NCBI GenBank assembly: GCA_045655765.1
Contig: JAZOQA010000057.1
Coordinates: forward strand, 1 to 56,559
DNA: 56,559 bases
Source of the DNA: Eubacteriales bacterium
GTDB lineage: Bacteria > Bacillota > Clostridia > Oscillospirales > CAG-272
Reading direction: 5' to 3'
The position numbers were made by a program, and so were the translations under genes. The notes under the pieces are model-generated. The model was not told where the DNA came from and made no database searches. It saw only the letters and a list, made by a program, of their open reading frames with translations. The stretch's first letter is position 1. Every line of letters starts with the position of its first letter. This document shows, piece after piece, positions 525 to 56,346 of the stretch.

Positions 525-569
525 TTTAACACGGGGCGGTATTTGCCGCAAAAAACAAGGAGAAAAGTT

Positions 570-1574: not shown

Positions 1575-1680
1575 AACTCCTCATAGCGTGAGAGCATTAT
1601 ATGTGTTTGTTTATACTTTGATTTTTTCACGCCCAAATTTTGTGCTGTCGCCCACGCACGGCGACTGAATGGAGATTAAA

Positions 1681-2784: not shown

Positions 2785-2804
2785 ACAAACTACGGAGGCA
2801 CACT

Positions 2805-4037: not shown

Positions 4038-4489
4038 AGCTTTATGTAATCAACGGTCCCAACCTTAATATGCTTGGTATAAGAGAGCCTGACCAGTACG
4101 GAAAAGCAAGCTACGGTGAATTAGTCGGGACAGTAGAACGATATTGCACCGAGTGCGGTGTGGAATGCGTTATATTTCAATCAAATCACGAGGGAGCCCT
4201 TGTAGATAAAATTCAAGAGGCATACTTTAACTGTGCTGACGGTATAGTTATCAACCCCGGGGCATATACGCATACGAGCATTGCTCTCCTCGATGCACTG
4301 AAAGCGACAAGGCTTCCCACGGTTGAGGTGCATATCTCAAGGGTGGAGGAGCGTGAGGACTTCAGACAAGTGAGCTATGTACGAGCGGCTGCCGTCAAGA
4401 CTATCACAGGTCACGGCATCAATGGCTATACCGAGGCAATAAGCTTTCTCGTTGAGTTTCTTAAAAAAACGGAGACGGAAGATAAATGA
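4034..4489 (+). CDS. aroQ: type II 3-dehydroquinate dehydratase
   Basis: INGPNLNMLGIREP, NPGAYTHTS and HISRVEEREDFR motifs. Its start overlaps the aroE/K stop (ATGA). Confidence 0.93.
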   Translation: MKLYVINGPNLNMLGIREPDQYGKASYGELVGTVERYCTECGVECVIFQSNHEGALVDKIQEAYFNCADGIVINPGAYTHTSIALLDALKATRLPTVEVHISRVEEREDFRQVSYVRAAAVKTITGHGINGYTEAISFLVEFLKKTETEDK

Positions 4490-5694
4490 AAATAAGGATA
4501 GAAAAAGGAAAAGCAAAGGGCAAAATCAGAGTTCCGTCATCAAAAAGTATGGCACACAGAATGCTGATTTGTGCCGCTATGTGTGACGGTGTCAGCACGG
4601 TCAGGGGCATTTCTCCCTGCGAGGATGTCAGTGCAACGATAGACTGCCTTAGTGCTTTGGGAATTAAAATAGAGTGTCAGGGCGATGAGGTAAAGGTGCA
4701 CGGCAAGAGCTTTGCCGAGCTTCAACCAAGTGACACTCTTAGGTGCAGAGAGAGCGGAAGCACTCTACGCTTTCTTATTCCTATTGCGATGATGTCGGGC
4801 AAAACGGCAATGTTCTGCGGTGCGGAGGGGCTGTTTTCAAGACCTATGGACGTTTACGAGGCTATTTTCAGAGAAAAAGGTCACACTTTTCTTTCGGACG
4901 GAAACACTATAACAGTCAAGGGACCTCTTGAGGGTGGAGAGTTTACGGTAGTCGGAAATATCAGCAGTCAGTTCATAAGCGGTCTTCTTTTCGCACTTCC
5001 CGGAGCAAAAAAAGACAGTATAATCAGAATTGTTCCGCCGATTGAAAGCCGTTCATATATAAATTTGACGCTTGAAGCTCTGAATCTTTTTGGAATTGAG
5101 GCATACTTTCGAGATGAGTATACCATTTTCATCAAGGGAGGACAAAAACCTACTGCCTGCGACGTTACCGTTGAGGGAGATTTTTCGGGAGCAGCATTTA
5201 TTGATGCCTTGAACGCATTTGATTCAGACGTAATCATAGAGGGACTTCGCCCCGAGAGCAAGCAGGGCGACAAGATATATAAAAAATACTTTGATATGCT
5301 CGGTGCGGGAATTCCTACAGTACATATAGGAGACTGCCCCGACCTCGGTCCTGTGCTTTTTGCTGTTGCGGCGGCAAAGTCGGGCGGAATTTTCGACGGA
5401 ACAAGACGTCTTAAAATAAAGGAAAGCGACAGAGCTGCCTCAATGGCGGAGGAGTTAAAGAAATTCGGTGCTTCGGTGACGGTATACGACGACACTGTGG
5501 TGGTTTATCCTAAGGATTTTCACGCACCCACGGAGCCACTTTGCGGTCATAACGACCACAGAATCGTTATGTCCCTTGCTATTTTGCTCACTCTTACGGG
5601 CGGTGAAATAGACGGAGCGGAGGCGGTAAGCAAAAGCTACCCCGAATTCTTCGAGCATCTGTCAAAGCTTGGTATAAGGGTTACAAAAATATGA
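4486..5694 (+). CDS. aroA: 3-phosphoshikimate 1-carboxyvinyltransferase (EPSP synthase)
   Basis: VPSSKSMAHRMLICAA, RESGSTLRF and DHRIVMS motifs. Its start overlaps the aroQ stop. Confidence 0.93.
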   Translation: MKIRIEKGKAKGKIRVPSSKSMAHRMLICAAMCDGVSTVRGISPCEDVSATIDCLSALGIKIECQGDEVKVHGKSFAELQPSDTLRCRESGSTLRFLIPIAMMSGKTAMFCGAEGLFSRPMDVYEAIFREKGHTFLSDGNTITVKGPLEGGEFTVVGNISSQFISGLLFALPGAKKDSIIRIVPPIESRSYINLTLEALNLFGIEAYFRDEYTIFIKGGQKPTACDVTVEGDFSGAAFIDALNAFDSDVIIEGLRPESKQGDKIYKKYFDMLGAGIPTVHIGDCPDLGPVLFAVAAAKSGGIFDGTRRLKIKESDRAASMAEELKKFGASVTVYDDTVVVYPKDFHAPTEPLCGHNDHRIVMSLAILLTLTGGEIDGAEAVSKSYPEFFEHLSKLGIRVTKI

Positions 5695-6554
5695 AATTCG
5701 ATAAAGAAACGAACATTTTAATAATAGGTCTCGGTGTAATAGGCGGAAGCTATGCCAAAGCACTCACCGAAAAGGGCTACAAGGTTGACACCATAACAAA
5801 GGAGCAGTCGAGCATCGACTACGCAAAATCGTGCGGAATGATACGCTACGGCACAACAGAGGTTGAAGAAGAGCTTGTGTCGGCAGCTGACCTTATTATT
5901 TTCGCTATTTACCCTGCCGCATTTGTTGAGTGGGTTAAAAAATATGCTCACTTATTCAAAAAGGGTGCGTGGGTAACGGACGTTTGCGGTGTTAAAGGAC
6001 GTGTGGTATACGATGTAGAGGCAATTATGCCCGAGGGTGTTGAATTTATTTCAGCACACCCGATGGCAGGACGTGAGCAAAGCGGTGTTGAGTTCAGCGA
6101 CCCGTCGGTTTTCAAGGGAGCAAACTACATTGTCACACCGACAGAAAAAAACTCAAAAGAAGCTATAGACCTATGCAAAAGACTCGGTGAGGAGCTTGGA
6201 TTTTCAAGAATTTCGGAGCTTTCTCCCAAGGAGCACGACGTTATGATAGGCTTCCTCTCACAGCTGACGCACTGCATTGCGGTTACTCTTATGAATTGCA
6301 GCACGGCGGACGGTCTTGAAAAGTATACGGGTGACTCGTTCCGTGACCTAACGAGGATTGCAAAAATAAACGATATGATGTGGAGTGAGCTTTTCATCAG
6401 CAACAAGGATGCACTTATATATCAAATGGATACTTTTATTAAAGAATTTTCGGATTTCAGATGGCTTATAGCTAATGAAAACCGAGATGAAATGCGTCAA
6501 AAAATGCGTGCATCCACGGAAAGAAGAAAGCTCTTCGACAAGCCAAAAAAATAA
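5691..6554 (+). CDS. tyrA: prephenate dehydrogenase
   Basis: N-terminal Rossmann motif IIGLGVIGGSYAKAL, plus the SAHPMAGRE motif. Its start overlaps the aroA stop. Confidence 0.85.
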   Translation: MKFDKETNILIIGLGVIGGSYAKALTEKGYKVDTITKEQSSIDYAKSCGMIRYGTTEVEEELVSAADLIIFAIYPAAFVEWVKKYAHLFKKGAWVTDVCGVKGRVVYDVEAIMPEGVEFISAHPMAGREQSGVEFSDPSVFKGANYIVTPTEKNSKEAIDLCKRLGEELGFSRISELSPKEHDVMIGFLSQLTHCIAVTLMNCSTADGLEKYTGDSFRDLTRIAKINDMMWSELFISNKDALIYQMDTFIKEFSDFRWLIANENRDEMRQKMRASTERRKLFDKPKK

Positions 6555-6578
6555 TTTTTATTTGAGGAATTTATAAAA

Positions 6579-7616
6579 ATGAACAAAAATATGATATTTT
6601 ACAGAAAGCTACCTATCCCGCAGGAGATAAAGGAAAAATTCCCTCTTACAGCCGCTGTTGCTAAGACAAGAGAGAATAGGGTTGAGCAAATCAGCAAGAT
6701 TTTCCGTGGTGAGGACGACCGTTTGATTCTCGTAATCGGTCCCTGCTCTGCCGACAGAGAGGACGCTGTGCTCGATTATATGTACAAGCTTCGCACAGTC
6801 GAGGAAAAGGTCAAGGACAAAATTATGATAGTTCCTCGAATCTACACAAACAAGCCCCGCACAACGGGTGAGGGCTATAAAGGTATGCTCCACCAGCCCG
6901 ACCCCAACGCCGAGCCGGATATGTTAAAGGGTATAGTGGCGATAAGGAAGCTGCATATGAGAGCTATTGAAGAAACAGGCTTCGGTTGTGCTGACGAGAT
7001 GCTTTATCCCGAGAACTACAAGTACCTATCCGATCTTTTGACTTACGTTGCAGTGGGTGCCCGTTCAAGCGAGGATCAGCAGCATAGACTTACGGCAAGC
7101 GGAATTGACATTCCCGTAGGTATGAAGAATCCGACGAGCGGTGATATTTCCGTAATGATGAACTCTATTAAGGCGGCACAAAGCTCACATATTTTCTGCT
7201 ACCGTGGCTGGGAGGCAAAGACTCTCGGCAACCCTCTTGCACACGCAATATTGAGGGGGTATGTAGATAAATACGGCAAATCCTTCTCCAATTATCATTA
7301 CGAGGACCTCTATTCTCTTTGGGAGGAATATCAAAAGGCAGGGCTTGCAAACCCAGCTGTAATAGTTGACACAAATCACGCAAATTCGGGAAAGAAATAT
7401 TTTGAGCAACCGAGAATTGCAAAGGAAATTCTACACGCCTGCCGTCATTCCTCTGAAATCAAGAGTATAGTCAAGGGACTTATGATAGAAAGCTACCTCG
7501 AAGACGGCTGCCAGAAAATTTCCGCCGACGAGGTTTACGGCAAATCAATCACCGACCCTTGCCTTGGTTGGGAAAAGACAGAGCGTCTTATACTCGAGCT
7601 TGCAGACGTTCTTTAA
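6579..7616 (+). CDS. aroG: 3-deoxy-7-phosphoheptulonate (DAHP) synthase, class I-alpha (AroF/G/H-like)
   Basis: VIGPCS, KPRTT, GARSSEDQQHR and VGMKNPTSG align to E. coli AroG motifs recalled from memory. Confidence 0.88.
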   Translation: MNKNMIFYRKLPIPQEIKEKFPLTAAVAKTRENRVEQISKIFRGEDDRLILVIGPCSADREDAVLDYMYKLRTVEEKVKDKIMIVPRIYTNKPRTTGEGYKGMLHQPDPNAEPDMLKGIVAIRKLHMRAIEETGFGCADEMLYPENYKYLSDLLTYVAVGARSSEDQQHRLTASGIDIPVGMKNPTSGDISVMMNSIKAAQSSHIFCYRGWEAKTLGNPLAHAILRGYVDKYGKSFSNYHYEDLYSLWEEYQKAGLANPAVIVDTNHANSGKKYFEQPRIAKEILHACRHSSEIKSIVKGLMIESYLEDGCQKISADEVYGKSITDPCLGWEKTERLILELADVL

Positions 7617-9802: not shown

Positions 9803-12800
9803 TTAAATTCTCTTAAATTCATACTTACCAAGTATGAATGCTCCGTAACCGAGGTCTACGATAACGCTGTGAATGTTATAGTTAAGAACGAAGTGTACCT
9901 CGTGTCCTGTGGTTGCATTTTTGTAAGTAACCATAACTACGTTGTAATTATTTACGGTATAGTCGGTTTTTACATAATTTTTGCCATCTGTTGATTTGGA
10001 ATCCGTAAGATAATTATACTCCGAGGTATATTCCTCAAGTACATTAAACGATATTTTGTAAGGATCGCTTGAAGCTGCATACTTTTCATCAAAGGACTCC
10101 TCAAGAAGCTCAAGGCGCTTAACTATTGAAGCTCTAATCTCATTTGCATACTTTTCATCAATCTGAATATTGTTTGTGAGATTGAGAAGATTGCCCGCCT
10201 GAGAGGCAATAGCATCTACGTCGATTTCGACCTTAACGCCCTTACCGTACTCTCCCTTGGCATTCATATCTTCATAAGCTGCGATGATATCTTGCTCGAT
10301 CTGTTCCTCAGCTCTGCTTATAAGCTCGTTTACAAGTTTTGTATAAACAAGCTCCTTTTCCTCTGCACCGATTACACGCTCTACGGTCAAAATTTTATGA
10401 TCAACAATTTTATAATTTTGAAGATCTCCAATTGCACCGTTTATAACGGAATACTGCTCTACAACATTTGTAAACCAGTTTTCGTAGCTGACACCGTAAT
10501 ACTTGTTGAGATTCTCATCCTCTTTCATATGATGATGATTGTCGTAGCAAAGAATGTAGTAAAGCGACGCGCCGTTCTCAATAGAGCGGAGAATATCGTA
10601 ATCGGGGTCACCCGAGTAGTTGAGTGCACTGCCGGTATACTTAACGTAACCGTGAAGAACCATTCCAAGGAACGGAACTGCATACGAGGAGTATCTCAAG
10701 TGGTTGGAATCAATGTATGCATCGATAATATGAGATGCATATTCAAGAGAATAAGCATTACCCTTATCAAGCATAATGTCATATCCGTCTTTCTTCATAG
10801 AAGCGAGAATGTCGGATATATACTCACTTGCCTCTTCTCTGTTGATGGGATTTTCATCATCAAAGTTAGAGTTAATATCGGAACCGAGGGTGGAAACGGA
10901 AATGTTCTTTATTCCAAACTCGGAGTAATCATCGTTGAACTCAACGTAGAGTTCTGCAAGAGCATCGGGAGAAACAAGCCTCGTAAGGAATGACTCGTAA
11001 GAGTGAGTGACGGAGTTATAAAGCTGCTTTTCAGCATAACGGTTGTCTATGAGCTTAGAGGAAATACCGTTAGGATAAATTCCATCAAACATCGCCGTAT
11101 TGTTAATATAAATGAAATCGAATTCGGGATAGATACCGAGGTGTGAGCCCTGCTTTGCAGAAACGCTGTTTGCGTAGTTCATAAGTGCCAAGAAGCCATC
11201 CTCGCCACCAACAACCTTATCCCACTTAACCTTAGATGGGTAAGTATATTCCATACCACCGTTAGCAAAGCCGGTAAGACGGAAGTTGATGTTCGTTATG
11301 TTTGTAATTTGTTCTGCAAGCTGATCGTATTCCTTTGCCTTTTGCTCATAAAGAGCCTTAAGCTCAAGATCCTTTTCAGTCTTTTTTGCCTCTTGTCTGT
11401 AATATTCTGCCTTTTCACGTATCAAACGGGTTGCATCAGCAAACTCGTCGTACATAGTACGAATATTTTCAAAGGTGGTGAGGGCTGTGGAAACCTCTAC
11501 GGGGAAAGAAAGAATCTTCTCCAAAATCTCCATAGAACCGAAGACCTCAATGTAAAGAGGAAGGTCGTTGCCAAGGCTTGCAAAGGCTTCAATAGTTCCG
11601 TCTTCGATAAGGTAATCACGGTAGCACTCTGCCATTGCAGAATAGCTTGCGTTGTAATTTGCACCGTAAATCGAGTTAAGTCTTTCGTCTGTGAGCATAG
11701 TGATCTTAGTTATGAAAGATCCGCTATACTTAGTCTCGGCAACCATCGTATACTCGCCAAGTCCACTGACCGAAAGGGTTTGAGAAAGGTCGTACGTATC
11801 GGACGGATAGGGACGGTATACGGGGTATATCGTTCCAAAGCCCGAGGTGGTACATTCAAATCTAAAGTTAAGGTGTGCAAGAGCCGCACCCTCTTCTATG
11901 ATTGCAAAGAATCCGTTTTGAAGCTTGGAAGTTCCTACAAGCTCCTGCATTTCAGGAGACACACTCTCAGTATATACCGCACCATATACAGGCATAGTAA
12001 CCTGCTCACGATAGTCACCTGTAATTGCGATGATATCGGAATATGCGTGGTCTATACCGTAAACGGGTGCCTTGAATGACACAATACCACCATTGTAGAA
12101 ATCAGAAATGCTTACTATAGTTCCACTTCCATCGGGGTAGAAAATATATCCATCGAGAGGATTCTTCTGGTTTCTGTTATAAGTACCGGGTCTTTCGGGA
12201 TTTTCATCAAGGTAGAAAAGATCACTTGCACCGAAATACTTAAGCGGAGTTATAGAATAAAGAATGTAAGTGGATTCATCAAACGTGATAGAGTTTGCGG
12301 GGAGATTCACCGAAAGGGTGCCATCCTCGTTAAACGTATACTCAAGAGCACATCTGAATACGGGGCGTGCTACAAACTCGTGAACGTAACCGCATTCCCT
12401 TTCATCCCTATACATATCATTAAAGCTGTAGGTGGGAGTGTCGTTGTATACGCAATACTTTTCAATGATTTCCTGAGTTTGAGCAAGGACTCTGTAGTTT
12501 GTATTGCTGATATTACAAATTACGTTATAGCCTGTGGTTGATGCTTTATAGCTGTTTGTAAACTCGAGAATCGCACCGTAGACATCCTGCATCGGGTTCG
12601 AGTATTCGAAAATTTTAACAATGTAGTACTCAATAAGAGAGAGATACTGACCTATTGCATCAACATTAAGCTTGCCGTTATCGCTGTAAAAGAGAAGTTC
12701 TGCGTAGGTGCAAGCCTCAACAACACTTCCGCAAGTAGAGCAAACGTACTCACCGTCTGCGTTGGGTGTCTTAACCTTCTCACCTACTGCGTGCTTTCTA

Positions 12801-13759
12801 CAGTAATGAACCGTTTCGTCAAGATTAAGAAGCTGAGAGAAGTTCTCAAAGCGTCTATTGAACTCATCACGTGCACCGGAGGTTACAAACTCGGTCTTCT
12901 CCTTATCAAGCTCAATAGTTCCCTTGCCCATTACGCTGGCTGCAAATTGATAAAGCTTTCCGTCACGGTAGGGAGATTTATTGTTGTCTACGTTCATACC
13001 GTATGCAAGAAGGTTCTTAAACGCTCTGTTTGCATTTCTGCCTGTATAATAGTCAAGCTGGCTTGCAGAGGTTGCCGTTTCAGGGCTGGTTGCCTCGGCA
13101 TCGTGCTTCTGGAAGAGCTTGTCGGCCTCAGCAATATAGTTCTCGAGAAGCGGAAGAACCAAACACTCCATATAACGATCCTGATGCATTGCACCGGGAA
13201 CAAGATATCTGAGTGTTGTATCACCGATGGTATAGCTTACACGAAGACCTCCGTTGATTGCAGACACGTAAATCTGTCCGTTGGTTGCGGCACCCGTAAA
13301 GCTGTCCATAGTAATAGGTGTTTCAGACGAGTTGGAAATTGAGTTGTACTCAAGCTCGATTTGGCTCACAAGAGTCGTCGTAGGGTTGGTAAGCTCACGG
13401 TAATCGTAGGGATTACTTGTAAGCACCTGCCCTGTCAGGTTGTTCTGATAATACATAAAGCCCGTATAGACGTTTACGTAAACAGAGTACATACCGTTTT
13501 TAGAGGTTGCTGACATAAGCTGTCCTGCAGCCTTCTCTGCTTCAAGCATCTGCTCCGCAGAGTTATACTTAAGCTGTTTTGCAAAAGTAAGTACGTTAAT
13601 GAAGTCTTCTTCATTTTTAGCATACATATTCGCTGCCGTTATAGAATCAGGCTTTTCTGCACTGTTAGCAGCAAATGCTAAAGTGGGGAATGCTACTATG
13701 ACCGCAGTTGAAAGCATAATCGCCGCAAGCAGCATAGATAATATTCTTTTAAATTTCAT
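9803..13759 (-). CDS. 1318-aa exported protein of unknown function. From memory it resembles DUF5696-type, possibly glycoside-hydrolase-like, proteins.
   Basis: Sec signal peptide (AFPTLAFA/ANS). Motifs FYPDGSG, MPVYG, FFAIIEEGAALA, LPLYIEVFG and LTGFANGGM. Has an AGGAGG RBS. I cannot name a catalytic signature. Confidence 0.8.
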   Translation of the reverse strand: MKFKRILSMLLAAIMLSTAVIVAFPTLAFAANSAEKPDSITAANMYAKNEEDFINVLTFAKQLKYNSAEQMLEAEKAAGQLMSATSKNGMYSVYVNVYTGFMYYQNNLTGQVLTSNPYDYRELTNPTTTLVSQIELEYNSISNSSETPITMDSFTGAATNGQIYVSAINGGLRVSYTIGDTTLRYLVPGAMHQDRYMECLVLPLLENYIAEADKLFQKHDAEATSPETATSASQLDYYTGRNANRAFKNLLAYGMNVDNNKSPYRDGKLYQFAASVMGKGTIELDKEKTEFVTSGARDEFNRRFENFSQLLNLDETVHYCRKHAVGEKVKTPNADGEYVCSTCGSVVEACTYAELLFYSDNGKLNVDAIGQYLSLIEYYIVKIFEYSNPMQDVYGAILEFTNSYKASTTGYNVICNISNTNYRVLAQTQEIIEKYCVYNDTPTYSFNDMYRDERECGYVHEFVARPVFRCALEYTFNEDGTLSVNLPANSITFDESTYILYSITPLKYFGASDLFYLDENPERPGTYNRNQKNPLDGYIFYPDGSGTIVSISDFYNGGIVSFKAPVYGIDHAYSDIIAITGDYREQVTMPVYGAVYTESVSPEMQELVGTSKLQNGFFAIIEEGAALAHLNFRFECTTSGFGTIYPVYRPYPSDTYDLSQTLSVSGLGEYTMVAETKYSGSFITKITMLTDERLNSIYGANYNASYSAMAECYRDYLIEDGTIEAFASLGNDLPLYIEVFGSMEILEKILSFPVEVSTALTTFENIRTMYDEFADATRLIREKAEYYRQEAKKTEKDLELKALYEQKAKEYDQLAEQITNITNINFRLTGFANGGMEYTYPSKVKWDKVVGGEDGFLALMNYANSVSAKQGSHLGIYPEFDFIYINNTAMFDGIYPNGISSKLIDNRYAEKQLYNSVTHSYESFLTRLVSPDALAELYVEFNDDYSEFGIKNISVSTLGSDINSNFDDENPINREEASEYISDILASMKKDGYDIMLDKGNAYSLEYASHIIDAYIDSNHLRYSSYAVPFLGMVLHGYVKYTGSALNYSGDPDYDILRSIENGASLYYILCYDNHHHMKEDENLNKYYGVSYENWFTNVVEQYSVINGAIGDLQNYKIVDHKILTVERVIGAEEKELVYTKLVNELISRAEEQIEQDIIAAYEDMNAKGEYGKGVKVEIDVDAIASQAGNLLNLTNNIQIDEKYANEIRASIVKRLELLEESFDEKYAASSDPYKISFNVLEEYTSEYNYLTDSKSTDGKNYVKTDYTVNNYNVVMVTYKNATTGHEVHFVLNYNIHSVIVDLGYGAFILGKYEFKRI

Positions 13760-17822: not shown

Positions 17823-20800
17823 TCAAGCGTTAGGTGTAGGATCGATTTCTTCTTCACCTGTTGTGGGATTCTTGTAACCCACGTACCAGATACCTCTGTC
17901 CTTAAACTCCTCACGCTTTCTCGTAATTTCGGAGTTAATCGCATCAATGTAGTTCTGAAGAGCTTCGACAGCATTAGCACCGTTATTTACCGCATCGAGG
18001 AATGCGAACTTCATATATCTATTATAAATGTAAGAACCAGGATAGTTTACTATGGAGCACATATTACTCATCTGATCCTGAATTGCAAGCTTTTCACTTG
18101 CTGTCCAAGACAGATCCTGAATAGCCTGAAGGTTTGCCGTCTCGTACTTTGCAGAAGGACCGATGAGGGCAACCATTCTGTTTCCGTACTCTGCCTGAAC
18201 GCTAGCGTTGCTGTTCCACTGAGAGAACTGCCAAGCAGCAAGAAGGTTGTCGCAGCCACGAAGAATTACGGTTGCTCCAACTCCTGCAAGAGACTCGTAA
18301 TGAATCTCCTCTACTCCGTCGCCGTCAGCATCTCTGAACAAGCCGGGAAGCGAGCAGAATTCCCAAAGACCTTCAATTTCCGTTGCGTAAACTACGAGCT
18401 GGTTGTAGAGTGCGCAGTAGCTACCAACAAGGATAGGCATTTCACCAGTTCTGAAACGGTTTGCAGCATCGTATGCTACGGGGAATGAATAGTCGCTATA
18501 AAGACGACACACAAACTCGAATGCTTCAAGAGCGATATCGGAGTCGAGGTCAATTCTTGCACCTGCGTACTTAGAATCGTACTCATCGCTGTTGGTGTAT
18601 TTCCAAAGGTTACCGCCCTTTTGATAAATCATAAAGTCAAGAGCGGAAATATAGTCAACACCGATAGACATATTATTAGACTGGATTATAGGCAAGCAAG
18701 ACAGAAGGTCATCCCAAGTCTCGGGAACGCCTATGTTCAGGTTTGCAAGAACATCCATACGGTAGAACATCATTGCGAAGTTCATCGTCTGAGGAACGCC
18801 GTACGTTACGCCAAGAAGCTGAAGCGTATCCATTGCAGCCTGTGTAAATACCTGCTTCTCTTCACCGTTAAGCACTTGTGGGCTATTTTCGGTAAGAATT
18901 ACGTCAGAATAAGGCTTTGTGATGAACGAAAGCTCCGCTCCCTCCTTTACAGACTTCCAAGCGGCAATTTCCTTGGGATCTGTAACGGTGACGGTAACGG
19001 TCGTTTTGTCAGGATTAAGATGAGTATAATAAGCCTCACCCAAATTTTCATCATAAGCGTACTCAACAAGCACAGCCCCCTCTTTGAGGCTCTTTTCGGG
19101 AGAAGAGATGGTAACTGTTACGTAATCATAGTTACCGTTGGTTTCATAACGGTAAGTATAATGAGTTGTAACGAAAATTTTATTTTCATCTGCATCGAGT
19201 CGGTGAGAATCATTTCCGTTCATTCCTATTACGGCACCACGGATAGCATAGTTAATTACGTCCGCAGCAGCAAGACCGATATAAACGTCAGGACCCTTGC
19301 CCGAAAGAATGGAGGGAAGAAGAGTTCCGCCCGTAACAAGCTTAAGCGCAGCGGGCGTACCCGTGCTGTTGGAATAACCGTTTTGAGCGTCAATCATTGA
19401 ACGCCAAATCTGGGACTGGTCTCGACCGGTCGCAAGCCAAACGTCAATCTTTTGACTGTCATCGGAAATCTCGGTGGTAAGACCCATCTCATCATAATCT
19501 ACCCAGAACGATGCAAAGAACGAAAGAATCTCAAACCAAAGAGATTCCCAGAAGCCTGCATCGGACTCACGGGGTTGCTCGGATGCGTTAGCGGGAACAA
19601 AGAATATTGCGTCAACCATAATTGTGCTCTGCTTTGAGCTGTTAATCCAAGAGCCGAGCGTTCCAAGGTAGGATTTAAGAGATCCCATATTCTTCGCTAC
19701 GTTATCTCCTCTGTCAGAGCCCATTTGAAGAAGCAAAAGTGCAATGGTGTCGAGCTGTGCAATGTGCGAACCGTTAGTTCCGCAAAGAGCCTCAAGCTCC
19801 GACTTTACTGCTGCAAGCTCCTTTGCTTGAACAAGGAAATTATAGAGCACATCAGGCATAATATCGTCAAATCTGTAATCACGGTTTTCATCCGGATCAG
19901 CTCCTGTGAGCTGAAGAATCTGTAGATAGCAATCATTAATAACATTAAGGGAAGCTTCTACACGCTGAATGCTGTTTTTGAGAGAGCCAAGAGAGCACTC
20001 GAGGTAAATGGTATACTGTACGCCCTCTTCAAAATAGAATTCATAAGCGTTTCCTTTGCCGTCGCCTATAAATTCAGACTGCCATTCCTTGCTGTAATTA
20101 TACTTTATGTCATTTGCTTCCTTAAAAGGAACTGTAGGAGTTCCGTCAGCAAGACCATACTCGCCACCGGCAAGCTTAATGGTACGGCAAACATACATAC
20201 CCTGCAGAGCATTCTGCAAGAATCGCATAGAAATCTTGTACATACCGTCTTTGGTGACGTAGAAATTATACGCTGCCCACTGTCCAACCGAACTATATCC
20301 GTTTTCTCCTATTACGTTATAAAGCTGAGAAGAGTGGTTGGTGGGGAACGTAGCCGCTGAGGTATTATCATTGGATGGAGCAACCGAAGAATCGGAAACA
20401 AAATCAGGAAATTCTGCCTCAATACGAACAGTTCCGTTACCAACAGGTGCGGCGGAATGCTCCGCACGGTAGTCGGCGTAGGACTTTGTGGAGTCTGCCG
20501 TAGCATCACCCTCCTTAACCTCTGCAGGAATAAGCTCTATGGACTTAACAATCACAGGGTCACGCTCTGCAATAAGAGAGAACTCGTGATCACCCTTTGA
20601 CATATAGAACATAAAGTTATCCGTATAATATCCGCTGGAATCCTTGAAGTAATAGGTCTTCCAAGCGGGGACGGCAACTGCCTCGGGTGCCATAGAGTTG
20701 TTATTCATATCAGCTTGAATGGTATAAGTTTTCGTAACACGGAAAAGCTTATCACCCTCGTACTCATAGGAAACAACGGTCTTTACATACGCACCAGGGT

Positions 20801-21533
20801 TCTCAACAGGATCGCTATAAGAGGTGACGGGCGGCTTATATTCCTCTTTGCCCGTTACGTCAACACGATCGGTTTTTGAGTTTGAATATACCCACGACTT
20901 GTCAAGAGTAACATATGCAGCTTCCGTAAAGGTAATCTGACCGTCAAGCATAAACTTACGCTCAATGGAGCTGGTGCTGCTTTCATCGGTAACAACGGTG
21001 AAGTATTCAATTTTAATATAATACATTCCGACATTCGAAACGTCGGGAATGCTGAACTGCCAAGTCGCAGTTCCTATTGAGGGGAGATAAACCGAGTTTG
21101 CAATATCATCTTGGTCGAAATCCTCCCAATTTTTTGAATTCTTCTCCATTTCCTCAGCAAAGAAGGGCTTCAGCTTGTAAGTCCCGTCGTCGTTGAATAC
21201 GGGATTGCCCTGCGAGTCGGTCTCGTAAAGAACGCCCGCATTCTCCTTCATTGCATCGTTAGTTCCGTAATTCGAAAACTCGAAGATATCGGAATTGTTC
21301 ACGTCGATGACAATATTGCTCACCGGCTTTTGCTTCTGTTGAGAAGCCCAAGCCTTGAGGTAATCCTCATACGACTTAGTTCCGACGAGGGAGTTCATCT
21401 CGTCGAGAGTGGATGCCGTACCGTTCTCCTTGTATTCGCCGTTGGCTGCACTGACGGTAAGTCCAAGTGCACTAAGAAGCGTCGCAAGGGTAAGAACAAG
21501 ACAAATCACTCTTTGAGTCAATTTTCTTTTCAT
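17823..21533 (-). CDS. giant extracellular solute-binding protein (family-1 SBP fold, C-terminal ~540 aa) behind a ~690-aa N-terminal extension containing two CBM-like beta-sandwich regions
   Basis: Type-I signal peptide (LTVSA/ANG, no lipobox Cys). Residues ~150-340 and ~365-515 resemble CBM6/35-type modules (VRIEAEFPDF...GQWAAYNFYVTKDGMYKISMRF). From ~695 onward the sequence is SBP-like (KIDVWLATG..., GVTYGVPQTMNFAMMFYRMDVL, PETWDDL). Has a GGAGGA RBS. Confidence 0.8.
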   Translation of the reverse strand: MKRKLTQRVICLVLTLATLLSALGLTVSAANGEYKENGTASTLDEMNSLVGTKSYEDYLKAWASQQKQKPVSNIVIDVNNSDIFEFSNYGTNDAMKENAGVLYETDSQGNPVFNDDGTYKLKPFFAEEMEKNSKNWEDFDQDDIANSVYLPSIGTATWQFSIPDVSNVGMYYIKIEYFTVVTDESSTSSIERKFMLDGQITFTEAAYVTLDKSWVYSNSKTDRVDVTGKEEYKPPVTSYSDPVENPGAYVKTVVSYEYEGDKLFRVTKTYTIQADMNNNSMAPEAVAVPAWKTYYFKDSSGYYTDNFMFYMSKGDHEFSLIAERDPVIVKSIELIPAEVKEGDATADSTKSYADYRAEHSAAPVGNGTVRIEAEFPDFVSDSSVAPSNDNTSAATFPTNHSSQLYNVIGENGYSSVGQWAAYNFYVTKDGMYKISMRFLQNALQGMYVCRTIKLAGGEYGLADGTPTVPFKEANDIKYNYSKEWQSEFIGDGKGNAYEFYFEEGVQYTIYLECSLGSLKNSIQRVEASLNVINDCYLQILQLTGADPDENRDYRFDDIMPDVLYNFLVQAKELAAVKSELEALCGTNGSHIAQLDTIALLLLQMGSDRGDNVAKNMGSLKSYLGTLGSWINSSKQSTIMVDAIFFVPANASEQPRESDAGFWESLWFEILSFFASFWVDYDEMGLTTEISDDSQKIDVWLATGRDQSQIWRSMIDAQNGYSNSTGTPAALKLVTGGTLLPSILSGKGPDVYIGLAAADVINYAIRGAVIGMNGNDSHRLDADENKIFVTTHYTYRYETNGNYDYVTVTISSPEKSLKEGAVLVEYAYDENLGEAYYTHLNPDKTTVTVTVTDPKEIAAWKSVKEGAELSFITKPYSDVILTENSPQVLNGEEKQVFTQAAMDTLQLLGVTYGVPQTMNFAMMFYRMDVLANLNIGVPETWDDLLSCLPIIQSNNMSIGVDYISALDFMIYQKGGNLWKYTNSDEYDSKYAGARIDLDSDIALEAFEFVCRLYSDYSFPVAYDAANRFRTGEMPILVGSYCALYNQLVVYATEIEGLWEFCSLPGLFRDADGDGVEEIHYESLAGVGATVILRGCDNLLAAWQFSQWNSNASVQAEYGNRMVALIGPSAKYETANLQAIQDLSWTASEKLAIQDQMSNMCSIVNYPGSYIYNRYMKFAFLDAVNNGANAVEALQNYIDAINSEITRKREEFKDRGIWYVGYKNPTTGEEEIDPTPNA

Positions 21534-47184: not shown

Positions 47185-47308
47185 TTAGCTGATTGTAAGA
47201 CAAATTAACCGTCTGCCCTTTTATCCCTAATCAATTAAAAAATTCACAAAAATATGATATAATTAAATGAAGCTTAAATGTTATATGAGCTTTTTTGAAG
47301 AATAAACA

Positions 47309-47332
47309 AAAAAAACACCCGCTTGGGGTGTT
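47309..47332. repeat. second copy of the ssrA-terminator hairpin (24-nt exact direct repeat, 180 bp from the first)
   Basis: aaaaaaacacccgcttggggtgtt occurs at 47309-47332 and at 47489-47512. Confidence 0.85.
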
Positions 47333-47488
47333 AAATTCTGTTTCAACGAATACAGATTCAAATTTTACGACGGGAATTCAAACTATGCAAATTTCAGGCA
47401 ATTTGCATACGCAGTTTTTTCTCTTAAAAACTGCGCCGTGTGGAGCTTTGCTCCCTCGCTTTCTCGCAACTGTCAGCACCGTCAAAAC

Positions 47489-47520
47489 AAAAAAACACCC
47501 GCTTGGGGTGTTTTTTGTTT
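47489..47520. terminator. intrinsic terminator of ssrA (usable in both directions)
   Basis: Stem acaccc/gggtgt flanked by an A7 run and a T6 run, directly after the tmRNA CCA end. Confidence 0.7.
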
Positions 47521-47886
47521 TGGTGGAGCCGACGGGAATCGAACCCGTGTCCAAAAACCTCTTGATACAACCTTCTCCGCAGACAGTTTGTCTTTTGAAA
47601 TTCCCCGTCAGGCACGCCGACAAACAGGCTCACCGTCAGGGTAGCCCTTTTTTGCTTGATCGGTTCAAGGGCGAAAGACCGATGCAAGTTCACTACTGAT
47701 TTGACGCACGGCAGAGGCCGTAGTCCTCCTCTGCGGTACGGGCGGCGTTAATGCCGCATCACAGCTTACGCTGCTACAGCAACTCTATTGTTGTCGTTTA
47801 TTATTTAAGTTGAACAGTTTTACGGGATTATTCAGCCCGCTGCGCTTATCATACCTTGGGATCCCTGTCGAAACCATTGCGGCCCC
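47521..47886 (-). ncRNA. ssrA: tmRNA (transfer-messenger RNA)
   Basis: On the minus strand, the 5' end is GGGGCCGCAAUGGUUUCGACAGGGA. The 3' end is the tRNA-like GGACACGGGUUCGAUUCCCGUCGGCUCCACCA. The internal tag frame reads ...AAC GAC AAC AAU AGA GUU GCU GUA GCA GCG UAA, giving a tag ending NDNNRVAVAA. Confidence 0.93.
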
Positions 47887-50810: not shown

Positions 50811-51041
50811 CTCACGTCGGTTTTTAGAATAAATCAAACAAGTATGAACCGCTCTCTGTTCAAGTTGAATGGGGCTTTGAAGTGCTTAAGGAAGATTACG
50901 GCTTTAGTTATTTTTTGCCTCAATTTGAGGTTTTTTCTTTATATTCTATACTTTTCTTAAACCGCACAAAAAGAACTGACACAAACGCTCTAAAATTTGC
51001 ATTTGAGGCAGCCCCATTTGGTACAATATAAGCACAAAAGC

Positions 51042-51065
51042 GGAGACATCGTTTACAATGTCTCC
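51042..51065 (-). terminator. terminator at the end of the T-box operon
   Basis: 8-bp stem ggagacat / atgtctcc, with T-rich flanks on both strands. It lies 10 nt past the last ORF. Confidence 0.55.
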
Positions 51066-51074
51066 ACTCGTTTT

Positions 51075-51290
51075 TTATTCGGTTATCCCTAAATGAGAAA
51101 GCCACTTTCTAATTGCATCAGTAACGTCTATTAAAGCAAGGTCTGCGTTTTGATTGTACGCTTCGATTGAAATCTCAACCAATCCATTCCTTGCGTTTCT
51201 TTTAATCAGATTAGTTATTGTCGCCTTGCCCGAATTCAGATCATCAAAATACATAGTATTACCTACACGGGCACTTTTAGTGTCTTGCAA
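51075..51290 (-). CDS. hypothetical small protein (71 aa from TTG; 59 aa if it starts at ATG 51254)
   Basis: ORF directly after the amidohydrolase gene. It has a weak RBS and no recognisable domain. Confidence 0.3.
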   Translation of the reverse strand: MQDTKSARVGNTMYFDDLNSGKATITNLIKRNARNGLVEISIEAYNQNADLALIDVTDAIRKWLSHLGITE

Positions 51291-51300
51291 GCTTTCATAA

Positions 51301-52098
51301 TTATTTCAAAAACAACCTTACCGCATTATTGTAAAGTATATCCTCACGTTGCTCTTGCGTAAGATCTATTTGCATAAATCTTTCCAATTCGATTTCAGGC
51401 TTCCACAGTGGGTAGTCGGTTCCAAACAATACTCGCTCGGTTCCGTAAGCCAAGATAAGCTCCTTTGCTTTTGTTTTTGTCAATGCATACAGAGAGGATG
51501 AGGTGTCCACAAAAAAGCTTTTGAACTTGCTGAGCTTTTCTGTAGCCTCCTCCCAAACCGACCATCCGCCTAAATGTGCACCGACAACCGTTAAGTTAGG
51601 ATACTTTTTAAGTATAGGCATCATACGGTTGGGATTTGAAAAATCAAAACGAGAATCTCCCGTATGCATCAGAATGGGGAGGACATTTTCGCATCGCTCA
51701 TAAATTTTATACATACGAGGATCGTCTATTGCCACCTTTTGTATATCGGGGTGGAGCTTGACTCCTTTTAAGCCAAGCTCCAAAATTTCGTCAATCTCCG
51801 CATCAATATTATCACTGTCCGGATGAAGTGTTCCAAGTCCGGTAAACCGTCCGTTACTAAGTGCTACGGATTCTTTAATAAAATGATTGATGGCGGAAAC
51901 CTGCTTTGGGGTAGTTGCAACGGATTGAACGATAAAATGATTGACTCCTGCTTTCTCACCGTGTTCAAGCAGGGTGGATATTTTACCGTCAAGAAGCGAT
52001 GTCATATCGTAAAAGCTACCTGTTCCTGCGGCGGCCTTTTCTGCAATTTTATCGGGATAGATATGGCAGTGAGAATCAATTATTCTATATTTTTTCAC
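51301..52098 (-). CDS. amidohydrolase-2 family (TIM-barrel metal-dependent hydrolase/decarboxylase superfamily) protein
   Basis: N-terminal IIDSHCHIYP metal motif, plus LHPD, HTGD, AHLGG and FGTDYP. GTG start. Confidence 0.8.
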   Translation of the reverse strand: MKKYRIIDSHCHIYPDKIAEKAAAGTGSFYDMTSLLDGKISTLLEHGEKAGVNHFIVQSVATTPKQVSAINHFIKESVALSNGRFTGLGTLHPDSDNIDAEIDEILELGLKGVKLHPDIQKVAIDDPRMYKIYERCENVLPILMHTGDSRFDFSNPNRMMPILKKYPNLTVVGAHLGGWSVWEEATEKLSKFKSFFVDTSSSLYALTKTKAKELILAYGTERVLFGTDYPLWKPEIELERFMQIDLTQEQREDILYNNAVRLFLK

Positions 52099-52129
52099 TA
52101 TTTAATTCATAACCTTTCTTGTGTGTCCG

Positions 52130-54589
52130 TTATTTCTTCAGCCCCAATATATCCACAGCTTGCTCACGCATCTTGTATTTCAGAATCTTACCTGCGGCAT
52201 TCATAGGAAATTCCTTGACAAAGAGGAAGTATCTCGGAACCTTGTGTCTTGCGATAGATGCGTTTCCGAATTCTTTCATTTCGGCTTCGTCAGCGGTTTC
52301 ACCCTTGTTTAGAATTACCCAAGCACAGCATTCCTCGCCGTATCTTTCGTCAGGGACACCGACGACCTGAACATCACGAACCTTGGGATTGGTCAGATAA
52401 AATTCTTCGATTTCACGAGGATAGAGGTTTTCACCGCCTCTGATAATCATATCCTTAAGTCTACCTGTGACCTTATAATAGCCGTCCGGCGTTCTCATAC
52501 AAATATCGCCCGAATGAAGCCATCCCTCAGCATCGATTGTTTGAGCGGTTGCTTCGGGCATCTTGTAATAGCCTTACATAATGTTAAAGCCGCGTGCAAC
52601 GAACTCACCGCTTTCACCGTCGGGAAGCTCCTTGCCGGTTTCGGGATCAATAATCTTACATTCTACACCCGGGAATGCACTGCCGACCGTTTCAACTCGG
52701 TGGTCAAGGTCTTCGTTGACCTCACCCATAGTACAGCCGGGAGAAGCCTCGGTCTGCCCGTAAACCGAAATGATCTCGCGCATATTCATCTCAACCGACG
52801 CACGGCGCATCAAATCTGCCGGGCAGTTTGCACCCGCCATAATACCGGTTCTCATATATGAAAAATCAGTCTTTGCAAAATCGGGGTGGCTGAACATAGC
52901 GATAAACATCGTGGGAACACCGTTAAAGCAGGTGATGTGCTCGTCATTTATGCAGGCAAGCGAGGATTTGGGAGAGAAATACGGAATCGGACAAAGTGTA
53001 CCGCCGTGTGTCATTATAGAGGTCATAGAAAGCACCATTCCAAAGCAATGGAACATAGGCACTTGTATCATCATACGGTCTGCGGTGGACAGATCCATTC
53101 TGTCACCGATGGTCTTGCCGTTGTTTACGATATTTCGGTGGGTAAGCATAACTCCCTTGGGGAATCCCGTAGTACCCGAGGTGTACTGCATATTGCATAC
53201 GTCATCGGGCTTGACAAGAGAAGCACGTCTGCGTACTTCTTCACGGGGAACGATATTGGAACGGGAAAGCATCTGCTCCCAATTCAGGCATCCTTGCATA
53301 TCAAATCCAACGGTTACAACGTTACGGAGGAAAGGCAGATTTTTTGAATACAAAGGATTTCCCGGAGTAAGATTTTTAAGCTCGGGGCAAAGCTCTTCTA
53401 TAATTTCCCTGTAATTGATGTCCTTGCAATACTCGACCATAACGAGCGTATGGGTGTCGGATTGCTTGAGCAGGTATTCGATTTCGTGGATCTTATATGC
53501 GGTGTTAACCGTTACCAAAACCGCACCGATCTTAGTGGTTGCCCAGAAGGTGATATACCACGCCGGAACGTTGGTTGCCCAAATCGCAACGTGGTCACCC
53601 GCTTTTACACCCAAGGAAATAAGTGCGGCTGCACATTCGTCAACATCACGGCGGAACTGCTTGTAGGTTCTCGTATAATCAAGAGTAGGATATTTGAAAG
53701 CAAACTGATCGGGATACTTTTCAGCCATTGTATCAAGCACGTCAGAGAATGTTGCGTCGATAACGTCATACTTCTTCCAAACGAACGTGCCTGTTTTTGC
53801 ACGGTTGTAGTAAGCGTGCTCAAAGGTCCTTTTCTCACGGCTCAAAGCGGCAATATAATTTGTGAAGTGAGTCAGAACGATATCTGCATCGCTGATCTGC
53901 TCGTTCCAAGCGGCGCAAATGAAGCCTTCGTAGTTCAAAGATGAGAGTGCATTCAAGATCTTTTTTACTTCAAGGTCACCCTCACCGATCAACACGGTTT
54001 TTCCGTCCTTCATATCTCCAAGACGCACGTATTTGATGTAAGCTCCGAGGTTTTTAATTGTAGCTTCTGCAGTTTCACCCGCATTAAAGTACGTTCCTCT
54101 GACATTCCAGGATGCACCTACTGCGGAAGAAGCAAAATGATTGATAATCTTAATTACGTTTTCTGTATTGGAAAGATACCCAACCGTTTCAAACAAAATG
54201 TTGACATCGGAATTTTCTGCACGTTTAATAGCGGCAGACATTTTTCCGTCTAAAGTATCGAAGGAAAAATTGTTCTCGGCACGAACAATAACGTTGTCGA
54301 TTCCGGAGGTTGCTGCCATTTCAACGTATTTCTGAGTCAATTCGGCAGTCGTTTCATCACTTTCGATAGGGGCAGGCATACGCAGTGCGGAGACGGTGAG
54401 ATTTCTGTTGACAAGCTTTCTTTTGGCATCGGCAATACGCTCACGTCTTAAAATGCTGTCGTAATGAGCATTTCTCTCTCCGATAGCATCGAAGATTTCG
54501 AATCCCTCAAAGCCGTAGTCATAAGCATAACGGCAGGTATCAAGAAAGGAAGCACGGCTTACGTTCTTGGTGGAAAAAACAATTTTCAT
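52130..54589 (-). pseudogene. xylose-isomerase-like TIM barrel fused to an acyl/aryl-CoA (AMP-forming) ligase, interrupted by an in-frame TAA at 52574-52576
   Basis: Residues 1-250 look like an AP-endonuclease-2/sugar-phosphate-isomerase TIM barrel. The AMP-binding motifs follow (YTSGTTGFPKGVMLTHRN, GQTEASP). The reading frame continues [29 protein letters not shown]...GKILK into ORF 52130-52561 in the same frame. Confidence 0.8.
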
Positions 54590-54595
54590 TGTGCA

Positions 54596-55984
54596 TTACG
54601 CCTCCTCGAATACAATTTTATTGAGTGCGTTAATATATGCTCTGATGCTTGCGGCAATAATGTCGGTGGATGTTCCGTTGCCTGAATAGAGCTTACCGCC
54701 AACGCGCAGTCTGACAAGTGCAGAACCGAGAGCTTCCTTTCCTTCGGTCACAGACTGAACCTGATAATCATCAAGCTCGTAGTGATGACCGATGCACTGC
54801 TCGATAGCACGAAAAGCAGAGTCGATAGGACCGTCGCCTGCACTGACACCGCAAATTACCTCGTCATTCTTTTTCAAAACGATCTGTGTCATTGCACTGG
54901 AAATATTACTACTCGTTGTAGTATAGGCTTCAAAATGATAGGTGGAGGGAGCCTGCATTGCAGAGCTTGCGATCAGAGCCTCAAATTCCTTTGCTCCGAC
55001 AGTGCCCTTCTTTTCGCATACTTGATTAAGCGCTTTATACACGTTTCCAATATCCGAATCGGAAAGCTCATAACCGAGAATAGCAGCTGCTTCTGCAACT
55101 TGTGTCACGGTGGAATCGGTATCGAGAAGAATCTTTTTCTTTACGTTTACGGTGCTGTCCGCATCATAAGAATCGTGGCTGATGCTTGATACAATATCCT
55201 CGATGCTTGCGTGAATATTGGTATTATTCAACTTGATCTCAGCACCGATCTGTGCACCGCAGGCATTAACGGCATCAGAGAACTCGCCTGTCAAGAGGGC
55301 ATCCTTGCCGACCATAGCACATTTAATTCCGGCGGCACCTACGGCGATTACAGAAAAAGCAGAAGCAACTGCCATATTGATGCGGTCGGAAACCTGAACG
55401 TATACGGGAACGGAAACCTCCGCTTTCACCTTTGCGACGATTGCAGCAATCTGCTCGGGCGTTGATGTACCGGCATTATCGCAAAGCGTAATAATAGTTG
55501 CACCTTTGGCTTCAGCTTCTTTTGCGGAAGCAATAAGGAACTCTTCCTCTGCTCTTGTCGCATCCAATGCGGAAAATTCTACGTCAGAGCAAACCGCCTT
55601 TGCTGCCGCAACCAGCTCTCCGATTTTTTCAAGCATTGCCGATTGCTTGACGTGATAGTTATATTCCATTTGAATGGTAGATACGGGAAGCTCTACCTGA
55701 AGGCGAGGTGCCTTGGCATCTTTAATGCACTCCCAAGCAACGCTTACCCCGTCTTGAGCAAAGCCTACAGGAATTGCCAATGTGGCGTTTTGAACGTTCT
55801 TGGCGATGGTCTTGTATATAATAAAATCCTCACGGATGTTCTTTACCGAGGGAAGCTCGATAGAGTCGACGCCGAGTCGGTCTGCACAATTAGCAATAGC
55901 TGATTTTTCGCGGAACAGCAGAGATACTGCACGATCCTCCGAAAGCTTTTTGAGTGTGATATCTGAAATGTTGATTTTTCTCAT
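54596..55984 (-). CDS. 2-isopropylmalate-synthase-like protein with degenerate catalytic motifs and an intact LeuA-type C-terminal regulatory domain
   Basis: Collinear with LeuA. However, DTTLRDGEQ reads DITLKKLSED and HxH reads QVS. The C-terminal GDGPIDSAFRAIE...GKEALGSALVRLRVGGKLYSGNGTSTDIIAASIRAYINALNKI is well conserved. Has an AAGGAG RBS. Confidence 0.8.
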   Translation of the reverse strand: MRKINISDITLKKLSEDRAVSLLFREKSAIANCADRLGVDSIELPSVKNIREDFIIYKTIAKNVQNATLAIPVGFAQDGVSVAWECIKDAKAPRLQVELPVSTIQMEYNYHVKQSAMLEKIGELVAAAKAVCSDVEFSALDATRAEEEFLIASAKEAEAKGATIITLCDNAGTSTPEQIAAIVAKVKAEVSVPVYVQVSDRINMAVASAFSVIAVGAAGIKCAMVGKDALLTGEFSDAVNACGAQIGAEIKLNNTNIHASIEDIVSSISHDSYDADSTVNVKKKILLDTDSTVTQVAEAAAILGYELSDSDIGNVYKALNQVCEKKGTVGAKEFEALIASSAMQAPSTYHFEAYTTTSSNISSAMTQIVLKKNDEVICGVSAGDGPIDSAFRAIEQCIGHHYELDDYQVQSVTEGKEALGSALVRLRVGGKLYSGNGTSTDIIAASIRAYINALNKIVFEEA

Positions 55985-56032
55985 TTTTGAAAACTCCTTT
56001 TAAATTCCAAAATATAAAAACAAGCTTATAAC

Positions 56033-56310
56033 AACAAAAATACGCTTCCATCTCTTTGTTGATTGCAAAGAGACGAAAACGCTAAATATTATGTTTCCGC
56101 GGTACCACTCTTCTTCATCCAAAACAGGATGCACTTTAGATGCTATCACATCTTAACTCTGTTACGGGAGTTCCCGATTGCCACTATTCCGAGTTTTCAT
56201 AGCAACCGCTCAACGGTGAGTTCAACAAAACTCCTTCTATGCCTCGCACCAACCGGCAACTCTCTGAAAGGGGAAATTTTGCATACTATTCCGCATCATT
56301 GCGTTTTTGA
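56033..56310 (-). promoter_or_regulatory. T-box riboswitch leader, leucine (CUC) specifier
   Basis: Minus-strand elements, in order. K-turn: AAUGAUG...UUGA. Specifier loop: AGUA ... GAA-CUC-A (codon at 56220-56218). AG bulge plus distal loop: CAGAGAG-uugcc-GGUUGGUGCGA. T-box sequence: AGAGUGGUACCGCGG (56112-56098). A 16-bp terminator (56081-56043) followed by UAUUUUU. Confidence 0.88.
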
Positions 56311-56317
56311 TGCAAAC

Positions 56318-56346
56318 ATTTTATCATATGGCATACCTTTTGTCAA
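56318..56346 (-). promoter_or_regulatory. sigma-A promoter of the T-box operon
   Basis: On the minus strand: TTGACA (56346-56341), 17 nt, TAAAAT (56323-56318). Confidence 0.6.

Follow-up and report, generated by a model that had tools for sequence, protein, structure and literature searches.

A leucine T-box operon of gut Clostridia that encodes a TIM barrel-acyl-CoA ligase fusion and a predicted LeuA pseudoenzyme

Leucine-responsive T-box riboswitches are best described from the ilv-leu operon and leuS of Bacillus subtilis and other Firmicutes, in which a CUC specifier and a terminator/antiterminator pair answer uncharged tRNA-Leu. Here we describe an operon that shares this riboswitch class and this logic but differs in its cargo, which comprises a TIM barrel fused to an AMP-forming acyl-CoA ligase of the ANL type and a predicted dead relative of the leucine-biosynthesis enzyme LeuA, with no synthetase, ilv-leu enzyme or transporter. 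It reads on the minus strand of contig JAZOQA010000057.1 from a Eubacteriales bacterium, the 56,559 nt of which are referred to as the window. On balance we lean towards a reading in which leucine starvation would induce the activation of a branched acid, probably isovalerate, for leucine synthesis, with the dead LeuA acting as a sensor and with the copy in the window being damaged.

Other described systems resemble parts of this operon. 2-Isopropylmalate synthase (LeuA) consists of an HMGL-like barrel followed by a LeuA_dimer regulatory domain, and the window protein has the same arrangement but is without the catalytic residues and about 60 residues of subdomain I. In HisZ-HisG, a dead HisRS paralogue is the histidine-sensing subunit of ATP phosphoribosyltransferase; the likeness lies in a paralogue that lacks catalysis, stems from the metabolism of the same amino acid, keeps its ligand-binding part and is encoded beside its presumed target enzyme. 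The partner proposed here, however, would be a salvage ligase and not the first de novo step, and both the contact and the leucine effect are predictions. Finally, rumen bacteria form Leu, Ile, Val and Phe from isovalerate, 2-methylbutyrate, isobutyrate and phenylacetate. In this reductive carboxylation route the acid is converted to an acyl-CoA (in the case of phenylacetate by a PaaK-type ligase), then to a 2-oxoacid by the oxidoreductases VOR or IOR and finally to the amino acid, and sister operons of the one studied here encode exactly that chain. The Leu ligase differs from the ligases of that route in being a TIM fusion of another lineage (PRK12583-like) instead of an HTH-cupin-ANL or PaaK protein, and in having a dead LeuA alongside. 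The T-box mechanism is textbook; the cargo is not. The T-box regulon surveys consulted do not mention CoA ligases, and a full-text literature search, outside which the main T-box reviews fell, found no description of T-box-controlled CoA ligases, of the TIM-ligase family, of the cassette or of the LeuA pseudoenzyme, so that a prior mention is possible.

The operon consists of the following features:

56318-56346, minus strand: sigma-70-type promoter TTGACA-17-TAAAAT with an extended -10 TG (11/12 matches, the best site in the region)
56066-56308, minus strand: T-box leader, RF00230 (Rfam covariance model, 123 bits, E = 8e-27)
56042-56082, minus strand: leader terminator, a 17-bp stem with a 7-nt loop, then AUUUUUGUUG (hairpin scan and folding)
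54596-55984, minus strand: predicted LeuA-like pseudoenzyme, 462 aa, with HMGL-like and LeuA_dimer domains (Pfam and residue alignment)
52130-54589, minus strand: TIM barrel (AP_endonuc_2-like, about aa 1-270) fused to an AMP-forming acyl-CoA ligase (about aa 277-819) (Pfam, NCBIfam and structure matches)
51301-52098, minus strand: Amidohydro_2 metal-dependent hydrolase or decarboxylase, 265 aa, GTG start (PF04909, 8e-35)
51075-51254, minus strand: what is left of a MaoC-like dehydratase gene, 59 codons beginning at the ATG at 51254 (aligned to full-length genes of 146 aa)
51038-51069, minus strand: terminator-like hairpin closing the operon, 14 pairs with a weak U tail

Our analysis confirms the leader as a canonical Leu T-box, predicted to act by transcription attenuation, because it combines a match to RF00230 with a CUC specifier, the T-box core and an overlapping terminator and antiterminator. 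The match exceeds the gathering score of 93 bits and spans the full model (positions 1-219), with the promoter ending about 10 nt 5' of the first model base. In both the Rfam alignment and the raw sequence, the Stem I specifier loop reads GAA-CUC-A at 56223-56217, placing the Leu codon CUC (56220-56218) after the S-turn GAA and before a purine. The T-box core is AGAGUGGUACCGCG, with the UGGU bulge at 56107-56104, and the variable bulge base U pairs with a discriminator A. When the 3' part of the leader is folded to minimum free energy, the terminator helix forms (-32.6 kcal/mol, z = -3.3). The 5' strand of this helix shares sequence with the 3' half of the antiterminator, and the antiterminator pairing of the Rfam alignment draws on the same bases, making the two structures mutually exclusive. 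The original prediction, made from the letters of the window, had named this promoter and a T-box with a CUC specifier ahead of an operon without a canonical leucine or tRNA-charging gene. The promoter was recovered at 56346-56318, with the TG extension as an addition, the T-box was found independently by the Rfam model, and none of the genes behind the leader is a canonical leu, ilv or leuS gene.

The same arrangement recurs in related genomes. The LeuA-like protein has thousands of database matches; the closest 120, which share 78-88% identity with it and almost all have its length of 462 aa, belong to uncultured Clostridia from the guts of ruminants. A genome scan found LeuA-like relatives in 301 species-representative genomes, and 80 of these loci were kept for examination (L-numbers such as L001 and L170 label loci of related genomes). 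In 84 of 85 loci the cassette stands immediately behind a T-box, the lone exception being cut by a contig end, and CUC fills the specifier column in 79 of the 80 aligned leaders even though leader identity to the window falls to 45% and the base after the specifier varies between A, G and C. This comparison of cassettes and leaders further bears out the leader assignment. The TIM-ligase gene adjoins the LeuA-like gene on its 3' side in all 73 loci that are long enough, with a gap of 1 nt in 51 and of at most 8 nt in 69 of them. Together with the substitution rates given below, these data show the LeuA-like protein and the ligase to be a conserved, selected pair with the gene spacing of translational coupling.

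Several of the same gut genomes carry further acid-CoA ligases behind T-boxes of other specificities:

specifier AUC (Ile): HTH_XRE-Cupin_2-AMP-binding fusions, about 757-766 aa
specifier GUA (Val): a second HTH-cupin-AMP-binding fusion, about 762-768 aa
specifier UUC (Phe): a PaaK-like phenylacetate-CoA ligase, 435 aa

The Val T-box matches the model over its full length at 85.5 bits (E = 3e-19), which is under the Rfam threshold. The operon behind it (L170, L171, L172 and L173) encodes the ligase, a 220-aa protein with a weak P-loop match in the L021 orthologue, a ferredoxin-like protein (Fer4), POR_N, TPP_enzyme_C and POR-gamma components and a class IV aminotransferase, and is by its predicted products a complete chain from acid to acyl-CoA, 2-oxoacid and amino acid. 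The Ile and Val units occupy 7020-16870 in L170, 6978-16694 in L172 and 87-7530 in L021. In L170 they neighbour the Leu cassette, which is divergently oriented, and the VOR and branched-chain aminotransferase (BCAT) genes lie within 9 kb of it. The Phe units lie at 14682-16328 in L030, 15615-17268 in L044 and 3170-7534 (minus strand) in L007, and in L007 the PaaK gene is followed by a putative DAHP synthase and a chorismate mutase/prephenate dehydratase, whose translations were read by eye only. A separate observation concerns L001 (7894-8077) and also L002, L003 and L028, where a partial Ile-type T-box (model positions 55-227) stands upstream of a GH77 amylomaltase gene and looks like the leftover of a lost HTH-cupin-ligase gene.

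The first gene of the window operon encodes a protein whose best NCBIfam score is 240 bits against a 532-bit cut-off and which falls under every LeuA, citramalate synthase and homocitrate synthase cut-off. Its residues were judged by alignment to solved isopropylmalate synthase barrels and to E. coli LeuA. The DTTLRDGEQ motif of the E. coli enzyme has become DITLKKLSE (R13K, E16S), the catalytic-Glu motif SCED has become SALD (E141L), HTHDD, which holds both metal His residues, has become QVSDR (H202Q, H204S), and GERAGN has become GEFSDA. Subdomain I has moreover been shortened by about 60 residues, HSSGIHQDG among them. Every part of the DRE-TIM catalytic set (the Arg and Glu of DTTLRDGEQ, the HxH ligands, the catalytic Glu and HSSGIHQDG) is therefore replaced or deleted, and the substitutions at these positions are conserved throughout the family. 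Because the catalytic residues and the HSSGIHQDG segment are lost, the protein is predicted to be catalytically dead and incapable of acting as a Claisen-condensing synthase; the same residues led us to reject an active divergent synthase as its identity. The degenerate active-site motifs noted in the original prediction were thus an understatement, as the whole catalytic set is replaced and the segment of subdomain I is gone.

The regulatory domain, by contrast with the barrel, is well preserved. It matches PF08502 (3e-30), its motifs GxGPxD, GK-ALG, GxGxxTDI and LN-I align with those of E. coli LeuA, and among 69 family members 73% of its positions are invariant, versus 36% in the barrel. 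The ratio of nonsynonymous to synonymous substitution rates (dN/dS) of the gene is 0.06-0.07, which points to purifying selection. A PDB sequence search with the regulatory domain gave no match, and an AlphaFold2 model built with 26 close homologues had a mean pLDDT of 51, was judged too poor and was not used.

The second gene encodes the fusion. Its ligase part has AMP-binding and AMP-binding_C domains and retains the core motifs YTSGTTGFPKG, YGQTE, GRLKDMIIRGGENLYP and AAGK; the best NCBIfam model is PRK12583 (fatty-acid CoA ligases), at about 640 summed bits versus a cut-off of 832, and among solved structures the domain matches malonyl-CoA and oxalate-CoA ligases well. Its dN/dS is 0.04. 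The TIM domain matches AP_endonuc_2 in Pfam (49.6 bits versus a cut-off of 31.1), and the metal ligands Glu-Asp-His-Glu have become Glu-Asn-Arg-Ala in the window family, with three of the four gone. A PDB search with the TIM domain alone returned MJ1311 as its sole match (E = 0.003), and a PDB search with a profile of the family extended to Art22, AsbF and sugar epimerases, with no substrate hint.

A second family of TIM-ligase fusions, 840-843 aa long and 55% identical, occurs in Petroclostridium, Dehalobacter, Saccharofermentanales and Acetivibrionales. The representative-library search gave mostly gene fragments and was used solely to find such distant fusions. These genes are monocistronic and have no conserved neighbours, and at the loci examined no LeuA-like gene was found nearby. 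Of the 78 loci whose upstream sequence is long enough, 66 have a T-box ahead of the fusion, and the remaining 12, which are metagenome loci, lack one; nor was one found at the Rfam threshold ahead of the copies in Dehalobacter (L087, 7460-8000) and Saccharofermentanales (L088, 7818-8000), even though the gap upstream of the Dehalobacter copy measures 540 nt. Of 59 aligned leaders, about 55 have CUC in the specifier column, the others being one each of CUU, CUG, UUC and a deletion, and the loop reads GAA-CUC-C in the cultured Petroclostridium sp. X23. Since the 843-aa fusions carry the Leu T-box without a LeuA-like gene nearby, the combination of Leu T-box and ligase appears to be the older unit. 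The Glu-Asp-His-Glu ligands are intact in the 840-843-aa fusions and lost solely in the lineage with a LeuA-like partner, so that the dead LeuA and the loss of the TIM metal site coincide in the gut lineage. Within this family, the otherwise identical leaders of L108 and L110 (at about 3592 in each) differ in the first specifier base, UUC in the former and CUC in the latter, which may be a codon switch from Leu to Phe or a sequencing variant.

Based on these comparisons we can present a proposal for how the operon would work. By default the leader would fold into the terminator at 56082-56042. Uncharged tRNA-Leu would base-pair with it at two places, the GAG anticodon at the CUC specifier and the NCCA end at the UGGU bulge, and this contact would stabilise the antiterminator and let RNA polymerase read into the genes. 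The AMP-forming ligase, predicted to be the sole catalytically competent component of the core, would then turn an acid with the leucine skeleton, probably isovalerate, into its CoA ester. A ferredoxin-dependent 2-oxoacid oxidoreductase would convert the ester to 2-oxoisocaproate by reductive carboxylation, and a branched-chain aminotransferase would convert 2-oxoisocaproate to leucine; VOR-type enzymes accept all three branched 2-oxoacids. The LeuA-like protein could bind the ligase through its degenerate TIM domain and make it sensitive to leucine. A salvage route of this kind had been put forward in the original prediction. It now has strong indirect support from the CUC T-box in the relatives, from the Ile, Val and Phe sister ligases and from the VOR and BCAT genes that accompany the Val ligase, whereas we only infer that isovalerate is the substrate and that the LeuA-like protein is a regulatory subunit.

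Several points weigh against this proposal. The window holds no oxidoreductase or aminotransferase gene, and in the relatives VOR and BCAT are under the Val and not the Leu T-box. The ligase domain scores under the cut-off of every curated NCBIfam model, the substrate specificity of ANL enzymes is not readable from sequence, and the ligase reading frame is broken in the window. Plain activation of isovalerate needs no TIM domain, amidohydrolase, MaoC protein or protein combining ACT and metallo-beta-lactamase (MBL) domains, and yet the 843-aa family keeps the metal ligands of its TIM domain. Leucine binding by the LeuA-like protein and its contact with the ligase are purely conjectural. A more specific version must be worded with more caution: tentatively, the pseudo-LeuA could be a leucine-sensing allosteric subunit docked on the degenerate TIM domain, so that leucine supply from branched acids of the gut would be gated doubly, by the charging of tRNA-Leu through the T-box and by free leucine through the pseudo-LeuA, as part of a wider, as yet undescribed T-box regulon of Leu, Ile, Val and Phe ligases in anaerobic Clostridia.

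The damage to the ligase gene raises the question of whether the cassette still functions in this genome. An in-frame TAA at 52576-52574 (codon 672) splits the gene into two open reading frames of the same frame, 54589-52574 and 52561-52130, encoding 671 aa and 143 aa, while the relatives encode an unbroken 819 aa. The codon is Lys in all 71 relatives that cover it (AAG in 51, AAA in 20). The stop precedes the A8 hinge and the A10 lysine, and the 671-aa product would be without the C-terminal domain, which ANL ligases need for both half-reactions. The TIM barrel-ligase fusion of the original prediction therefore stands as a domain architecture but not as an intact single gene, and its treatment of the operon as intact has to be given up, since the fourth reading frame is also a gene fragment. 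There is a considerable chance, if somewhat short of even, that the cassette is decaying and non-functional here, with a T-box that still switches and products that are inactive; the stop, the internal deletion in the MaoC gene and the missing ligase domain all favour this. Against it, the LeuA-like and Amidohydro_2 reading frames are intact, and an ATG five codons 3' of the TAA could permit a split enzyme. Moreover, dN/dS is 0.044 after the stop and 0.041 before it, and because the sequence beyond the stop shows no relaxed constraint, the TAA appears either to have arisen very recently or to be an error of assembly or sequencing. At the TAA site, the 22 sequencing runs retrieved contain related strains only, and the contig pieces that cover it sit at contig ends; wider searches yielded no further reads, and no RNA run turned up. 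Recoding of the TAA was rejected, as TAA serves as the normal stop of the amidohydrolase gene and of the MaoC remnant in the same operon.

The genes downstream of the pair are less constant. The spacings within the window operon are 6, 31 and 10 nt, as had been predicted and as the reading-frame coordinates bear out. The Amidohydro_2 protein, a family assignment that likewise stands, has the HxH, His, His and Asp metal-ligand positions, as read from its sequence, and its nearest solved structure is the uncharacterised BB4693. What had been taken for a separate small gene of 71 codons turns out to be the remnant of a 146-aa MaoC dehydratase. It retains the N-terminal MYFDDL and the last 50 or so residues, the latter being 66% identical to the C-terminal third of the L001 protein, and an in-frame deletion of about 87 residues removes the hydratase region including PLHTDEEYA, so that the full hot-dog fold with the hydratase motif is missing. 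The MaoC gene of L079 (8685-9059) is likewise broken, by a stop and a deletion. The closing hairpin, previously placed at 51042-51065, was recovered at 51069-51038 and also reads as a terminator on the plus strand. Cassette content, tallied over 58 informative loci, was as follows:

30 of 58 loci: the pair and Amidohydro_2
19 of 58 loci: the pair only
9 of 58 loci: cassettes with MaoC and/or ACT+MBL

Amidohydro_2 is present in 34 of these 58 cassettes and by this distribution is an accessory gene. A PDB sequence search with the ACT-MBL protein gave no match. Behind the cassette's Amidohydro_2 gene, 14 loci of Acutalibacteraceae have a cysteine-synthase-like PALP gene, set off by a gap of about 120 nt (for example L021 12879-13808 and L170 736-1665).

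The recurrence of MaoC, ACT+MBL and Amidohydro_2 in a cassette that would not need them for simple salvage leaves room for a CoA-dependent branch of leucine biosynthesis, which we regard as improbable. In one form of it, the substrate of the ligase would be a dicarboxylic hydroxy acid, for instance 2-isopropylmalate; MaoC would dehydrate and rehydrate the CoA ester in the manner of mesaconyl-CoA and itaconyl-CoA hydratases, and the MBL protein or the amidohydrolase would free the product. In another form, isovaleryl-CoA would condense with glyoxylate to yield 3-isopropylmalate. The structural match to malonyl-CoA and oxalate-CoA ligases would suit such a substrate, and a partner derived from LeuA could still bind ligands resembling isopropylmalate. 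However, the accessory genes are not part of the core, because 19 of the 58 cassettes and the 843-aa family lack them and they are decayed in the window and in L079. Nor does the LeuA-like protein retain any Claisen-condensation residue or the HSSGIHQDG segment, and no reductase or dehydrogenase is present.

It is similarly doubtful that the main role of the ligase is to prime the synthesis of iso-branched fatty acids and plasmalogens with isovaleryl-CoA at times when leucine, from which the primer normally comes, is short: the T-box and ligase evidence is identical to that for leucine salvage, the placement of VOR and BCAT outside Leu control would fit, and rumen bacteria incorporate exogenous isovalerate into branched lipids as well as leucine, but the sister Val operon has the oxidoreductase and aminotransferase needed for an amino acid, the Phe-controlled PaaK gene adjoins putative genes of aromatic amino acid synthesis, and a predicted leucine-binding regulatory domain suits end-product control of leucine supply.

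It has long been recognised that bacteria of the rumen and hindgut require branched-chain volatile fatty acids and convert them to amino acids, and the genes and control of this use are poorly mapped. The locus and its relatives point to a coherent set of T-box-governed acid-CoA ligases, one per amino acid, that would feed a shared ferredoxin oxidoreductase and aminotransferase. Such a set would provide gene markers for branched-acid use in metagenomes, and it offers a functional lead for the widespread TIM-ligase family, which databases label just 'AMP-binding protein'. In addition, the LeuA-like protein may be a new example of a regulatory pseudoenzyme that derives from a biosynthetic enzyme. 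The ligase part of the proposal is directly testable in a cultured carrier, Petroclostridium sp. X23.

Elsewhere in the window, a compact aromatic cluster on the plus strand (543-7616) encodes dehydroquinate synthase, chorismate synthase, a shikimate dehydrogenase-kinase fusion, EPSP synthase, prephenate dehydrogenase and DAHP synthase; no T-box was found ahead of it. Two very large reading frames on the minus strand (9803-13759 and 17823-21533) lie beside sugar ABC permease genes, one of them encoding 1318 aa with a DUF5696 domain and the other 1236 aa without a Pfam match. A second, permuted tmRNA call by ARAGORN (47292-47614), which has no Rfam support, overlaps a tmRNA gene on the minus strand at 47521-47886, for which Rfam gives 163.5 bits and whose tag peptide reads DNNRVAVAA.

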